40,988 nt of DNA from Escherichia phage PhiR49_2. Every line of letters begins with the position of its first letter. Positions within the stretch are counted from its first letter, which is position 1. The DNA lies in sequence record PV340570.1. One strand, 5' to 3'. Shown in pieces: positions 9,899-13,217 of this stretch. A model generated the notes under the pieces. The model did not search any database. It saw only the letters and a list, made by a program, of their open reading frames with translations, and was not told where the DNA came from. Position numbers and translations under genes: made by a program.

Positions 9899-10119
9899 TC
9901 CGCCACATCGTTAATTTCCTGTATCACCGATACAACCGTTGCCCCCGAGTGGGGCAGTGGTTTACCACCAGCAACGGCCTCGTTCTGCGGGTTTGCCTGG
10001 TCAATGCAGAAAGTCAGAAGGTTGTCTGCCAGGTGCAGGGGCGTACTTATACCCTGAGTTACCCGCTGGTGGCGTTTCAGTCCGGAAAAATGTTTAAACG
10101 CCAGGGAGGTGTTCTATGA
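9895..10119 (+). CDS. Hypothetical protein
   Basis: 74 aa; translationally coupled on both sides. Confidence 0.45.
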   Translation: MIRHIVNFLYHRYNRCPRVGQWFTTSNGLVLRVCLVNAESQKVVCQVQGRTYTLSYPLVAFQSGKMFKRQGGVL

Positions 10120-10940
10120 GCATGGAGCTGATGGTTAAAGCGATGAAAATTCGTGTGGGGAATCCATTGCGAAAACTGGTTCTGGTTAAGCTGGCGGATA
10201 ATGCCAGCGATCAGGGCGAGTGCTGGCCCAGCTATCAGCATATTGCTGATCAGTGCGAGATTAGCAAACGTTCTGTGATGAATCATATTACGGCTCTTTG
10301 TGAATCCGGACTGGTAAAAAAAGTTTCCCGGAAAGGTGAAAAAGGGAACTCGAGCAATATTTATCTTCTTCGTCTTGATGGTGCAAAAGATTCACCAGGT
10401 GGTAGTGCAAATAATTCACTACCTAGTGCAGCAAATTCACCAGGTGGTGCAGGAGTTGCACCAGGGGGTAGTGCAGGAGATTCACCCAGAACCAGTCACT
10501 CTTTTGAACCAGTCAAAGAACCAGTCAATGAATCAACTATTGGCGCATCCGCTGACGCGTCTGCACCAGCGCGTTCCGCCCGACAGGAATATTCACCGGA
10601 ATTTGAACAGGCCTGGCAGGAATATCCCAAACGTGCTGGTGGCAATTCCAAGTCAGCAGCCTTCAAAGCCTGGAAAGCCCGTATCAGGGAGGGAATAAAA
10701 CCGGAGACCATGCTTGATGGCGTGAAGCGGTATGCCGCCTGGGTACGTGCTACAGGAAATACCGGCACACAGTTCGTGAAGCAGGCTGCGACGTTCTTTG
10801 GACCCGATCGTCACTTCGAAGATTACTGGCAACAGCCAGCCGCTCACGGAGGTGGGCGACAGCGACAGGTCGATGTCCTGGCTGGCCTGGGAGCCATGTC
10901 TGACAAATTCGGTAAATCCAGTAACAAATTGACATTCTGA
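10116..10940 (+). CDS. Replication initiation protein (O-like; winged-helix N-terminus)
   Basis: 274 aa; N-terminal wHTH; low-complexity Gly/Ser/Pro/Ala linker encoded by iteron-like DNA repeats; immediately precedes the DnaC-like and DnaB-like genes. Confidence 0.6.
   Translation: MSMELMVKAMKIRVGNPLRKLVLVKLADNASDQGECWPSYQHIADQCEISKRSVMNHITALCESGLVKKVSRKGEKGNSSNIYLLRLDGAKDSPGGSANNSLPSAANSPGGAGVAPGGSAGDSPRTSHSFEPVKEPVNESTIGASADASAPARSARQEYSPEFEQAWQEYPKRAGGNSKSAAFKAWKARIREGIKPETMLDGVKRYAAWVRATGNTGTQFVKQAATFFGPDRHFEDYWQQPAAHGGGRQRQVDVLAGLGAMSDKFGKSSNKLTF
10388..10495. repeat. Iteron-like direct repeats inside the replication initiator gene (candidate origin)
   Basis: Four to five degenerate ~21-bp units resembling AATTCACCAGGTGGTAGTGCA (e.g. 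starting near 10388, 10409, 10429, 10451, 10471). Confidence 0.5.
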
Positions 10941-10941
10941 G

Positions 10942-11829
10942 GTGACAGCGATGATGACGATTGACCAACGTGAGAAACAAACAAGACTACAGGCGCGAAT
11001 GGATGAGTTACGGGCAGAGATTGCATTTGCTCAGAATGGCGAAAAGCCATGGCCTTACCGTGCCTGTCGGGAATCTGAAGGGGTTGGATGCTGCGAAAAA
11101 CACGGTAAATATCGTACGCATATACTGGTGTGGGATGATCGGCAGGGGGGCGCTGTCTCAAAAATTTCCCGCTGTCCGGAGTGTCTGGTGGATGAAATGG
11201 ATGTGACACATCGGACTCTGGTTGCAATGAAAGCTGATGTGCTGATTGAGAATGCTGGTGTTGCCTGTAGGTTTCGCGACTGTGAGTTTGAAAACTATCA
11301 GGAGATTAACTCTGATGCAGCCAGAAATCTTGCTGCCTGCCGCCGCTATGCGGAGAGCTGGGAGGATGTTCTGGCTAACGGTACCAGTCTTGTTCTGACA
11401 GGCAGTTGTGGTACTGGAAAAAATCATCTGGCTGTGGCTATGGCAAAACACATCATCCGTAACCATCTGGCTAGTGTGGAGATTACTGATGTGATGCGCC
11501 TTACCCGTGCTGTGAAAAACTGCTGGCGAAATGACAGCGAAAAAACAGCGGATGAAGTTATTGAGCATTATGCGTCAATGGATTTGCTGATCATCGACGA
11601 AGTCGGCGTTCAGTTTGGCAGCGCGGCTGAAATGGCTATTTTGCAGGAAATTATCAATGCCCGGTACGAAAGCATCCTGCCCACCATCCTGATCAGCAAC
11701 CTTTCACCGGAAGAGTTGTGGGCATTCATCAGCCCCCGCATTGCCGACAGGATCACAGACGGGGGACGCAACTGGTTGTCGTTTAACTGGCCCAGCTATC
11801 GTTCTCGTATCAGAGGTGTGGCTGCATGA
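10942..11829 (+). CDS. DnaC-like helicase loader (AAA+ ATPase)
   Basis: 295 aa; Walker A …LTGSCGTGKNHLAVAMA…, Walker B …LLIIDEVG…; N-terminal Cys cluster (CCEKHG…CPEC). Confidence 0.75.
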   Translation: MTAMMTIDQREKQTRLQARMDELRAEIAFAQNGEKPWPYRACRESEGVGCCEKHGKYRTHILVWDDRQGGAVSKISRCPECLVDEMDVTHRTLVAMKADVLIENAGVACRFRDCEFENYQEINSDAARNLAACRRYAESWEDVLANGTSLVLTGSCGTGKNHLAVAMAKHIIRNHLASVEITDVMRLTRAVKNCWRNDSEKTADEVIEHYASMDLLIIDEVGVQFGSAAEMAILQEIINARYESILPTILISNLSPEELWAFISPRIADRITDGGRNWLSFNWPSYRSRIRGVAA

Positions 11830-13217
11830 CTTCTCCTGTCTGGCGTAACGATGACCTGGAAGGCGCTGTCATTGGCGCGTTTTTTCTGCGAGGGGCAGAT
11901 CATGAAGTGATGGATATTCTGGCCACACTACCGGCGGACGTTTTTTCTGTACGAGCGTATCGGGATATCTACACAGGCATCTGCAGACAGGCCCGTGTTT
12001 CAGGTGCGATTGATCCTGTGCTGCTGTGCAATGATATGCCGGAACTTGCCCCGGTGATTACTGATACCGGGCGCAAAACCTGGGTGAAGTCGTCACTGGA
12101 GCACTATGTTGCAGCGCTGCGGCGCAATGCCGCATTGCGTGATGCAGAAAAAACACTGAATGAGGCGCTGCAGAAATTACGTGATGCGCATACCTGTGAA
12201 GCAGCTGAAGATGCTCTGAAGGATGCTCAAAACATGATGGCCTCATTGTCGATGGAAAAGGGCGTCATTCAGCCTGTTCACATTGATGATGTACTTCCGG
12301 AAGTGGTCGACCGTGTTGAATGCCGGAATCAGGGACTGGAGAAATCCAGAACGCTGATGACCGGTATTGATGAACTGGACGCAAAAACGGGCGGTATGGA
12401 GCCCGGAGACCTGGTATTTATTGCGGCTCGTCCGTCAATGGGCAAAACCGAACTGGCGCTGGACATCATCGACAAGGTGACTGAGCAGGGGCATGGCGTG
12501 CTTCTGTTCACCATGGAGATGGCGAACATCCAGATTGGTGAACGTATGGTGTCTGCTGCCGGTGGAATGCCGGTATCCCGTCTTAAGTCTGTTGCCCGTT
12601 TTGAAGACGAAGACTGGGCACGCTTCTCACAGGGTGTGGGACGAATGACGGGGCGTAATATCTGGATGGTGGACCAGGCAAACCTGACCATTGATGAGAT
12701 ATGTGCAACCACGAAGCACCACTGGATGAAACACCCGGAAACGGCGCTGGTGGTGGTCGATTACCTCGGCCTGATTAAAACCCGCAGCACGGGGCGTCAC
12801 GACCTTGCGGTGGGGGAAATCTCAAAGGGACTTAAAAGCCTGGCAAAATCCGGCGGTTTTCCGCTGATTGCTCTGAGCCAGCTCTCCCGCGGCGTGGAAT
12901 CCAGACCCAATAAACGCCCCATGAACTCGGACCTGAAAAACTCCGGGGAAATCGAGGCGGATGCCGACATCATTCTGATGCTTTACAGGGATGAGGTATA
13001 CAACCCGGAAACTCAGGCCAGAGGCATAGCAGAAATCAACATCACGAAACAGCGTAATGGCACGCTCGGGACCATTTACCGGCGTTTTCATAACGGACAT
13101 TTTCTGCCTGTGGACCAGGAGAGTGCCCGGGTTCTTTCCACACCCATGACGCCGGGCAATCCGCGCAGATACAGCAATAACCGCATGTCGGGCAGTAAAA
13201 CGGAGCGTTTATTTTGA
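11826..13217 (+). CDS. DnaB-family replicative helicase
   Basis: 463 aa; Walker A …ARPSMGKTELAL…; …PLIALSQLSRGVESR… and …EIEADADIILMLYRDEVY… match DnaB C-terminal motifs. Confidence 0.8.
   Translation: MTSPVWRNDDLEGAVIGAFFLRGADHEVMDILATLPADVFSVRAYRDIYTGICRQARVSGAIDPVLLCNDMPELAPVITDTGRKTWVKSSLEHYVAALRRNAALRDAEKTLNEALQKLRDAHTCEAAEDALKDAQNMMASLSMEKGVIQPVHIDDVLPEVVDRVECRNQGLEKSRTLMTGIDELDAKTGGMEPGDLVFIAARPSMGKTELALDIIDKVTEQGHGVLLFTMEMANIQIGERMVSAAGGMPVSRLKSVARFEDEDWARFSQGVGRMTGRNIWMVDQANLTIDEICATTKHHWMKHPETALVVVDYLGLIKTRSTGRHDLAVGEISKGLKSLAKSGGFPLIALSQLSRGVESRPNKRPMNSDLKNSGEIEADADIILMLYRDEVYNPETQARGIAEINITKQRNGTLGTIYRRFHNGHFLPVDQESARVLSTPMTPGNPRRYSNNRMSGSKTERLF

Follow-up and report, generated by a model that had tools for sequence, protein, structure and literature searches.

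Bacillus phage SPP1 encodes a replisome organizer, a loader and a DnaB-type helicase (G38P, G39P and G40P, respectively); its origin lies inside the organizer gene, and G39P is not known to be an AAA+ protein. In the lambdoid early operon of P22, no AAA+ loader gene is known to stand between the O-like initiator (gene 18) and the phage DnaB-family helicase (gene 12), and in phage lambda the non-AAA+ protein P hijacks the host DnaB. Modules of the P22 type have been described as an origin-binding protein plus a DnaB-like helicase (PMC10307801), and the layout of ori-lambda within the O gene is likewise documented (PMC7466680). The combination of initiator, loader and helicase is a named class, 'ILH-type' (Weigel & Seitz 2006, cited by PMC9144972). 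Genes L17, L18 and L19 of phage phiP27 (NC_003356) follow this order, genes of the phiP27 type being annotated in RefSeq as a DnaC-like helicase loader and a replicative DNA helicase, and the same module is found in many Stx1- and Stx2-converting phages (e.g. LC567829), as well as in the 'Eru7' layout (Llarena et al. 2022).

Here we analysed a window of 40,988 nucleotides from Escherichia phage PhiR49_2 (PV340570.1), in which three abutting, co-directional plus-strand ORFs occupy positions 10116–10940, 10942–11829 and 11826–13217 (274, 295 and 463 aa). They encode, in one operon and in the order that characterises the ILH type, an initiator, a DnaC-type AAA+ helicase loader and a DnaB-family replicative helicase, identities that had been proposed in the original prediction and were borne out in searches of several independent libraries as well as in predicted structures. 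Very probably the locus is the replication module in the early right operon of a lambdoid E. coli prophage, ILH in type and with its origin within the initiator gene, as in lambda. It resembles P22 in coupling an O-like initiator to a phage DnaB-family helicase in a lambdoid early operon, and differs from it in the loader gene between the two; in place of lambda P it has a DnaC-type AAA+ loader and its own DnaB-type helicase. No sequence relationship to SPP1 is detectable in either initiators or loaders.

The rarity that the original prediction implied for the pairing of loader and helicase did not hold up, since the class already has a name in the citing source and the module is annotated in phiP27 and widespread. 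phiP27 shares with the window the gene order, the loader, the helicase and the initiator C-terminal domain (~89% nucleotide identity, starting at window position 10536), whereas its N-terminal DNA-binding cassette and iterons differ; the window's cassette is that of phages cdtI and SfV, and both cassette and iterons recur in cdtI and in an Stx2c-converting phage. The module is a common, already described type and is not unusual; most of it is carried by 286 of 5426 complete E. coli genomes, and prophages of Salmonella, Klebsiella, Serratia and Pantoea have the same gene order.

Small ORFs adjoin the module on either side. Upstream, a 74-aa plus-strand ORF (9895–10119; PHROG 1153, 1.6e-41) overlaps the initiator start (ATGA) and travels with the initiator in relatives, with 89% identity to the ORF ahead of a different-cassette initiator in Stx2_EH2201 and 53% to cdtI orf45. 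Downstream, the helicase stop overlaps (13214–13217) the start of an 85-aa plus-strand ORF (13214–13471; PHROG 2565, 2.7e-30), which is kept after the helicase in Stx phages and whose counterpart at the same position in Stx2_EH2201 is annotated as a hypothetical protein; its membership of the replication module is uncertain. The loader stop and helicase start likewise overlap as ATGA (11826–11829). For the loader itself, ATG 10951 (10951–11829, 292 aa) is a more likely start than GTG 10942 (295 aa), given the Shine-Dalgarno sequence GAGGTG at 10939–10944 and the 292-aa length of database homologues. The window prophage contains no stx genes and has two Rha genes after cro, like the Eru7 layout. 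No primase domain was found among the ORFs scanned in the window's first 15 kb.

The loader and helicase pair

The helicase (11826–13217, plus strand) carries both DnaB_C (PF03796, 1.8e-73, 247.5 bits against a cut-off of 27) and, marginally, the DnaB N-terminal domain (PF00772, 24.5 bits against a cut-off of 23). Its best solved structure is that of E. coli DnaB (4e-65), which it matches over the full length. Walker A (RPSMGKT, 12429–12449), Walker B (VVVDYL, 12750–12767) and the conserved motifs SQLSR and SDLKNSG (12876–12947) are intact, so that the protein combines the RecA-type C-terminal domain, Walker motifs, DnaB motifs and N-terminal domain expected of the DnaB family. Despite a match of 1e-92 to TIGR00665, it falls below the cut-offs of both that bacterial DnaB equivalog model (311 versus 385 bits) and the phage DnaB model TIGR03600 (280 versus 499 bits); it belongs to a phage lineage of its own and shares 40% identity with P22 gene 12 over 95% of its length.

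The loader matches IstB_IS21 in Pfam (PF01695, 4e-16, 59.5 bits against a cut-off of 24.1), DnaC as its best NCBIfam model, and E. coli DnaC as its best solved structure (6qel, 1e-31); the AlphaFold2 model (pLDDT 86) has as its best Foldseek match the DnaC chain of the E. coli DnaB–DnaC complex (6qem_G, 7e-14). With 140 bits against a cut-off of 357 in NF005931, it is not an ortholog of chromosomal DnaC and is best called DnaC-like. Its AAA+ domain is ~30–32% identical to that of E. coli DnaC (6qel, 6qem), with which it shares the GTGKNH variant of Walker A, the Arg finger and a C-terminal FNWxSYR. Walker A (GSCGTGKNH, 11401–11427), Walker B (LLIIDE, 11584–11601), sensor I (N250) and the Arg finger (R267, 11740–11751), which together mark the DnaC/DnaI-family AAA+ clade, are invariant across 28 loader homologues. 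Walker B and the Arg finger align with D169/E170 and R220 of E. coli DnaC, which we take to be functional residues. The protein at 10942–11829 is thus a DnaC-type loader and not the non-loader AAA+ protein that had been named as grounds for abandoning the original prediction.

The first ~90 residues are a different matter. Residues 1–92, modelled by AlphaFold2 as a helix, three strands and a helix, do not align with DnaC and appear unrelated to its N-terminal domain; they carry a Cys/His motif, C48-x2-H51 (11092–11106) and C75-P-x-C78 (11173–11184), that is invariant in the same 28 homologues. A profile of this domain found nothing in the PDB or Pfam, and no characterised relative. Because the domain is unlike that of E. 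coli DnaC and lacks such a relative, the loader's partner is read from synteny only, and synteny together with the gene overlap points to the phage DnaB-type helicase. A DnaB-like helicase is present in 80 of 80 IMG/VR loader loci, and the initiator C-terminal domain in 79, the exception being cut at a contig end. Among full-length relatives from distinct species, the gene directly downstream of the loader is DnaB-like in every case (18/18), and loader and helicase divergence are correlated (Spearman 0.87).

These observations bear on an alternative that accepts the module as described and that we consider rather unlikely, in which the loader is not exclusive to the phage helicase: it would load or sequester host DnaB, or serve both helicases, while the initiator, as in P22, would bring in the phage helicase directly. 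In that case replication would still depend on host DnaB. A related loader in phage Bcep22 (gp28, 33% identity, with the same Cys/His motif as CEKHG...CPxC) adjoins an initiator with the same C-terminal domain in a phage that has no helicase of its own, so the loader family can presumably serve host DnaB. The AAA+ part is moreover closest to E. coli DnaC. Modules of the P22 type lack a loader, and their helicase is 40% identical to the window's; no dedicated AAA+ loader is known for the P22 gene 12 helicase. Alleles also recombine among close relatives, loaders 81–83% identical to the window's being found beside helicases 92–97% identical. Yet, in addition to the correlated divergence, all intact loci examined, from at least 11 genera, keep the loader and helicase genes overlapping and in synteny, and a helicase is never adjacent to the 239–248-aa DnaC-like genes that lack the Cys/His motif. 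We favour a loader that would act on the phage helicase. Independence from host DnaB and DnaC, as originally suggested, is plausible and would be a reasonable reading of the gene content.

The initiator gene and its candidate origin

The initiator (10116–10940, plus strand; PHROG 270 'replication initiation protein', 2e-90) has an HTH_36 domain at aa 17–67 (PF13730, E = 8.5e-11). AlphaFold2, assessed block by block, predicts a winged helix (aa 1–88), a disordered linker (aa 90–155), a helical C-terminal domain (aa 158–240, pLDDT 95–98) and a disordered tail (aa 245–274), and Foldseek matches the structure to phage two-domain initiators, replisome organizers and DnaD-like two-domain proteins. 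Its resemblance to O is confined to architecture: its N-terminal domain is HTH_36, and the lambda O family (Phage_rep_O, PF04492) is absent from its Pfam matches at E ≤ 0.01. The C-terminal domain, placed at 10587–10835 (YSPEFE...FFGPDRHF) by alignments, has no match in Pfam or the PDB and is presumed to be a recruitment or organizer domain.

Iteron-like repeats had been predicted at 10388–10495 inside this gene. A repeat search confirmed that they are real, with coordinates slightly shifted to 10379–10489. Five copies of the consensus TRGTGCA-N5-TTCACYAGG start at 10379, 10403, 10424, 10445 and 10469 (spacing 24/21/21/24 bp), each with a partly dyad-symmetric core (GTGCA...TKCAC), and Tandem Repeats Finder reports a period of 21 with 4.7 copies. 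The core GTGCA-N5-TKCAC has five plus-strand matches in the 40,988 bases, all within the array, against 0.29 expected, a count reached in none of 100 shuffles; one copy is palindromic and so scores on the minus strand too. The whole 41-kb window holds no other cluster of the motif. We regard the five iterons as candidate initiator-binding sites of the origin, on the strength of the repeat search, their spacing in relatives and their codon choice.

That the repeats are merely a repetitive Gly/Ser/Ala/Pro linker produced by slippage, with the true origin elsewhere in the prophage, is very unlikely. They do translate into a 7–8-residue peptide repeat (G/S-A-x-x-S-P-G), and identical codons could partly reflect recent duplication, as in cdtI, where a 66-bp (three-iteron) duplication has given eight copies. 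However, the linker that the iterons encode is predicted to be disordered (pLDDT 39–54), and the iteron arms are invariant or nearly so, synonymous sites included, while the five-base spacer varies non-synonymously. All seven Ala codons of the linker are GCA, compared with 24% elsewhere in the three genes, and all seven Ser codons are TCA or AGT, compared with 26%. Repeat phase is conserved, with identical spacing across nine related loci and copy number shifting by whole iterons; this spacing is kept in every relative and the repeats show constraint at the DNA level, which disposes of the possibility, raised alongside the original prediction, that they reflect only low-complexity coding sequence. 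The iterons are also conserved across genera. In a Salmonella, Serratia and Pantoea trio, the linker contains the gene's most conserved DNA despite its predicted disordered peptide, the gene-wide peak coinciding with the last iteron and the adjoining 12-bp repeats (0.89–0.91 three-way invariant versus 0.5–0.75 elsewhere).

The repeats also change with the DNA-binding part of the protein. Among related initiators, one C-terminal domain is joined to at least five unrelated N-terminal cassettes, and four of five cassette types (A, B, C and E) each have a distinct set of linker repeats in the same place, with a dyad-symmetric core particular to that set; type D has only the 12-bp repeats common to C and E. 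The specificity cassette is exchangeable in lambda too. The stretch of the initiator gene that encodes the linker thus contains phased direct repeats (at least three being our threshold for an origin) with internal dyad symmetry, and these covary with the DNA-binding cassette. In lambda O/ori-lambda, as in the window, iterons and an A/T-richer tract (a modest one in the window) occupy the centre of the initiator gene, where they encode the linker between DNA-binding and recruitment domains, and by virtue of this shared layout an origin inside the initiator gene appears well supported by comparison. Counting against it, no perfect DnaA box lies nearby, and promoter-like sites are not enriched.

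Between the iterons and the part encoding the C-terminal domain, three GAACCAGTCA repeats of 10–11 bp start at 10488, 10505 and 10517 and form a candidate unwinding and helicase-entry region (10488–10539). The search for an adjacent AT-rich element, suggested with the original prediction, gave a modest candidate, 40-nt tracts of 35% GC on both sides of the iterons (10340–10379 and 10500–10539): 35% GC is only the window's 5th percentile (mean 50%), and this weakness fits the slippage reading better than ours. At the same position, other cassette types have short A/T-rich repeats, either a 12-bp ACAGAGATTACT repeat (3–5 copies) or two 24-bp repeats.

Proposed mode of initiation and implications

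A role for the AAA+ protein in IS21-type transposition, as an IstB helper, or in a defence system, rather than in replication, is extremely improbable: although its top Pfam family bears the name IstB_IS21 and PADLOC gives weak matches (DrmD, 4e-4; mad8, 7e-6), the PADLOC scores do not rise above noise, NCBIfam DnaC outscores the IS21 helper (140 versus 74 bits, with an IS21 cut-off of 200), DnaC is the best solved structure in both sequence and fold, and the gene's neighbours in the prophage early operon are the initiator and the DnaB helicase, with no adjacent IstA transposase and no IstA-like transposase or inverted repeats flanking it.

In the ILH-type reading that we prefer, the N-terminal winged helix of the initiator would bind the five iterons at 10379–10489, which recur about every two helical turns and code for the initiator's own flexible linker. 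The resulting nucleoprotein complex may destabilise the adjoining A/T-richer patch at 10488–10539, and the C-terminal domain and tail would recruit the phage's own DnaC-type loader and DnaB-type helicase as a complex. ATP-bound loader would then open the helicase ring and place the helicase on the unwound strands, after which host primase and polymerase III would take over.

The tail is encoded at 10848–10937 (GGGRQRQVDVLAGLGAMSDKFGKSSNKLTF) and is the variant that accompanies the loader and helicase pair. All 82 tails from loader-selected loci end in ..LTF (..KLTF in the window) and lie upstream of a loader and a helicase, whereas the tail is ..IPxGFRG in 5/5 phages whose initiator stands alone. 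The same C-terminal domain is also found without loader and helicase, or with just a loader: in SfV orf39, ST64B sb42, mEp460 gp43 and cdtI orf46, after which neither a loader nor a phage helicase follows, and in Bcep22 gp27-gp28, where a DnaC-like loader is present and a phage helicase is not, it is 56–77% identical to the window's. We tentatively propose, as a possibility that may well prove wrong, that the initiator family is a three-part adaptor whose parts are exchanged separately: a specificity cassette with its own iterons; shared 12- or 24-bp A/T-rich repeats as a common unwinding and helicase-entry element; and a C-terminal domain with a variable tail that chooses host DnaB–DnaC, a phage loader, or a loader–helicase pair. 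The loader's Cys/His domain might in that case be an uncharacterised, probably zinc-binding, helicase-docking domain, and the pair an orthogonal DnaC–DnaB system beside that of the host.

No experimental study of the module turned up in the literature searched, nor any of what the loader's Cys/His domain does or of the initiator's unclassified C-terminal domain. For phage biology, the module chiefly confirms good annotation. In Shiga-toxin phages, induction and toxin yield are believed to depend in part on the replication type (PMC8044961, PMC8951638), and since the module family is widespread, including in many of these phages, an explicit origin map could help: the iterons, candidate unwinding repeats and cassette boundaries given here could aid both builders of replicons and comparisons of replication type among Stx phages.

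Organisation of the replication genes and their products

The replication module of PhiR49_2 consists of three co-directional, abutting plus-strand genes, encoding an initiator (10116–10940), a loader (10942 or 10951–11829) and a helicase (11826–13217), and the original prediction of an O-like initiator followed by a DnaC-like loader and a DnaB-like helicase was borne out. A GGGAGGTG ribosome site lies ahead of the initiator gene, the loader most likely starts at the ATG at 10951, behind GAGGTG, and the loader and helicase genes overlap by ATGA. The initiator (274 aa) matched HTH_36 (8.5e-11) and PHROG 270, 'replication initiation protein' (2e-90). 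Its AlphaFold2 model comprises a winged helix (residues 1–88), a stretch predicted to be disordered (90–155, pLDDT ~40–54), and a compact helical C-domain (158–240, pLDDT 95–98) followed by a disordered tail. Among viral folds it resembled two-domain phage initiators, 'replisome organizers' and DnaD-like proteins. Because one phage record names the counterpart of the C-domain 'primosomal protein I', we considered kinship with DnaT; this was dropped, as PDB sequence matches were only noise, Foldseek matches to PDB folds were limited to the winged helix, and Pfam gave no match.

On its own, and with the tail ..IPxGFRG, the C-domain occurs in Stx2c phages and in SfV, ST64B, mEp460 and cdtI; in Bcep22 (gp27–gp28) its sole partner is a DnaC-like loader; and elsewhere, as here, it is accompanied by both loader and helicase and has tails ..LTF, ..LNF or ..CNW. 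A single initiator family therefore spans what the original prediction had presented as alternatives. Most of the proteins retrieved with the 132-aa C-domain as query were partial and no longer than 231 aa, a set fit for alignment but poor for architecture.

The loader (292 aa) belongs to PF01695, has a DnaC model as its best NCBIfam match, and falls into PHROG 50, 'DnaC-like helicase loader'. It aligns to residues 48–242 of E. coli DnaC (1e-31), taking in the GTGKNH Walker A and DEVG Walker B motifs, the Arg finger and the C-terminal FNWxSYR; the structure nearest to its model (pLDDT 86) is DnaC inside the DnaB–DnaC complex. The first ~90 residues have no match to DnaC and carry a C48-x2-H51 ... 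C75-P-x-C78 motif that did not vary among 28 homologues, the most distant being 52% identical. An 18-sequence profile gave no support for a DnaI-type zinc domain (best PDB E = 0.72, to an unrelated protein; nothing meaningful in Pfam), leaving the domain unclassified, and an exhaustive single-sequence search with this domain returned 12 cluster representatives, all close family or fragments. Nor does the motif mark loaders paired with a phage helicase, because Bcep22 gp28 carries it and has no such partner.

The helicase (463 aa) belongs to the DnaB family, is full-length, has its motifs intact and shares 40% identity with P22 gene 12. It scores under curated equivalog cut-offs and is therefore a separate phage lineage. 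Reading the loader as part of a defence system was rejected, since PADLOC matches were at noise level only.

Distribution and linkage of the module

Matches to the module were found in 77 phage records. Identity to phiP27 (L17–L19) and many Stx1/Stx2 phages is ~89% from window position 10536 onwards, exactly where the common C-domain begins. Among complete E. coli genomes, 1230 of 5426 gave a match and 286 had at least 80% of the module covered; the best were 99% identical and annotated as 'helix-turn-helix domain-containing protein | ATP-binding protein | replicative DNA helicase'.

Loader relatives were encoded on 489 IMG/VR stretches. In the best 80 of these 489 loci, a DnaB-like helicase was present in all 80 and the initiator C-domain in 79, the exception ending at a contig edge. 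Across a one-genome-per-species collection, all 18 full-length loader relatives (11 genera) had a DnaB-like gene directly downstream and 16 had the initiator upstream, with an IS element in its place in the other two. The same collection held 33 shorter DnaC-like genes (mostly 239–248 aa, some truncated), without the Cys/His motif and without an adjacent helicase. Loader and helicase divergence were correlated (Spearman 0.87).

In E. coli ECMA0423 (locus L097, 2761–3638) and Shigella flexneri SFBU1023 (L098), an opposite-strand IS3-type transposase sits where the initiator belongs, with the loader and helicase pair intact downstream; the module at these loci has decayed. Further upstream in L097 (927–2786) lies a primase-like/intein-containing ORF.

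Iterons and candidate origin within the initiator gene

The repeats predicted inside the initiator gene were confirmed as five iterons, TRGTGCA-N5-TTCACYAGG, starting at 10379, 10403, 10424, 10445 and 10469 (spacing 24, 21, 21 and 24). Their core, GTGCA-N5-TKCAC, has no further exact match in the 40,988 bases (0.29 expected), and allowing one mismatch added only isolated single sites, e.g. at 7784. No perfect DnaA box (TTWTNCACA) was found in 9800–11200.

Within the iteron-coding linker, 7/7 Ala codons are GCA (24% elsewhere in the three genes) and 7/7 Ser codons are TCA or AGT (26% elsewhere), so that synonymous choice is fixed although the peptide is predicted to be disordered; in the five-base spacer between iteron arms the encoded amino acid varies freely. 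The possibility that the repeats are mere low-complexity coding sequence, with spacing not kept, failed, as spacing is the same in nine related loci. Phage cdtI (5266–5436 of its locus) has eight iterons versus five here, through an exact 66-bp tandem duplication of three iterons that adds 22 linker residues to its initiator.

C-domains are 90–100% identical between initiators whose N-terminal cassettes are unrelated. Of the five types of cassette (A–E), all but D carry, in the corresponding position, a repeat set peculiar to that type. In type A (this window and cdtI) this is GTGCA-N5-TTCAC; type B (phiP27, and Salmonella and Klebsiella prophages) has CCnTCAGAWTCTG; type C (Stx2_EH2201) has lambda-like TCCC/GGGA hairpins; and type E (Salmonella, Serratia, Pantoea) has GGTCAAWWTGACC at 23-bp spacing. 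For type D, the commonest in IMG/VR, only 12-bp ACAGAGATTACT repeats were detected. Iterons are kept across genera within types B and E. In a type E trio, the last iteron and the 12-bp repeats next to it show the highest DNA conservation of the whole gene (three-way invariant fraction 0.89–0.91, versus 0.5–0.75 in structured domains). Taken together, codon choice, spacing, covariation with cassette and cross-genus conservation argue that the iteron DNA, and not the encoded peptide, is under selection, and they support the predicted placement of the probable origin at these repeats.

Every cassette type also has A/T-richer short repeats after the iterons and ahead of the sequence coding for the C-domain: three copies of GAACCAGTCA inside a 35% GC patch in type A (10488–10527), three to five 12-bp ACAGAGATTACT copies in types C, D and E, and two 24-mers in type B. 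We infer that these form a candidate unwinding element, with AT-richness modest in this window. The ACAGAGATTACT copies encode TEIT repeats just before the C-domain (L063 3522–3580; L062 3536–3580; L089 3047–3090; L092 3050–3096; L093 3047–3090). Their occurrence in three unrelated cassette types suggests an element swapped independently of the iterons.

Prophage setting and proposed initiation pathway

The window holds a lambdoid prophage that looks complete and is a toxin-less relative of Shiga-toxin phages. An integrase (32–1345, minus strand) is followed by an Ead/Ea22 gene, a cI-type S24 repressor (6933–7628, minus strand), a Cro/YdaS-like gene (7756–8046) and, between cro and the replication genes, two Rha genes (8043–8750 and 8859–9707, the second with an Ash domain). 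This two-Rha layout after cro defines the 'Eru7' type of Stx phages, in a scheme that sorts them by Rha genes and not by the replication genes themselves (PMC8951638). A 74-aa ORF (9895–10119, PHROG 1153) overlaps the initiator start, is 89% identical to its Stx2_EH2201 counterpart and 53% to that of cdtI, and is kept ahead of initiators regardless of their N-terminal cassette; it may be an overlooked fourth member of the module.

An 85-aa ORF of unknown function (13214–13471, PHROG 2565) overlaps the end of the helicase gene and precedes a DUF968/HNH (YdfU-like) gene (13493–14512); both also lie 3' of the helicase in Stx2_EH2201, the one Stx phage locus examined. A Q antiterminator, three tRNAs, and lysis and structural genes follow. 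An N6/N4 DNA methylase remnant (15062–15340) retains only the C-terminal 92 residues (Pfam profile positions 137–220 of 221), with a hairpin and T-run just 5' of it (~14980–15005); the gene is intact (1059 nt) at the same place in related Stx phages (Stx2_EH2201 locus, 8950–10008). The tRNA genes, Met(cat), Arg(tcg) and Arg(tct) (15381–15630), are arranged as in Stx phages, where stx genes come next; here only ~340 bp (15630–15973) separate them from the lysis genes. There were roughly twice as many terminator-like sites as expected from shuffled sequence, and a promoter scan gave a count no higher than such an expectation.

The best explanation for the module is a lambda-like initiation pathway. 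The initiator would bind its own iterons, the adjacent DNA would open, and the C-domain and tail would recruit the phage's DnaC-type loader and DnaB-type helicase. Replication by this route may be independent of host DnaB and DnaC. No primase domain was found in those ORFs of the first 15 kb of the window that were scanned, so host DnaG is presumably used for priming. The classic three-protein analogue is G38P/G39P/G40P of SPP1. The gene order corresponds to the ILH type named by Weigel & Seitz 2006, as cited in PMC9144972, and enterobacterial dnaC has itself been proposed to derive from a phage gene by domestication (PMC5109545). A phage 'P27' has been described with a lambda-type O protein and six iterons (PMC7466680), unlike 'phiP27' (NC_003356), which has the HTH initiator, DnaC-like and DnaB-like module; these may be different phages.

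The module is already known and common. Its remaining interest lies in two unclassified domains, the Cys/His domain of the loader and the C-domain of the initiator with its partner-linked tails, and in an explicit map of the origin.
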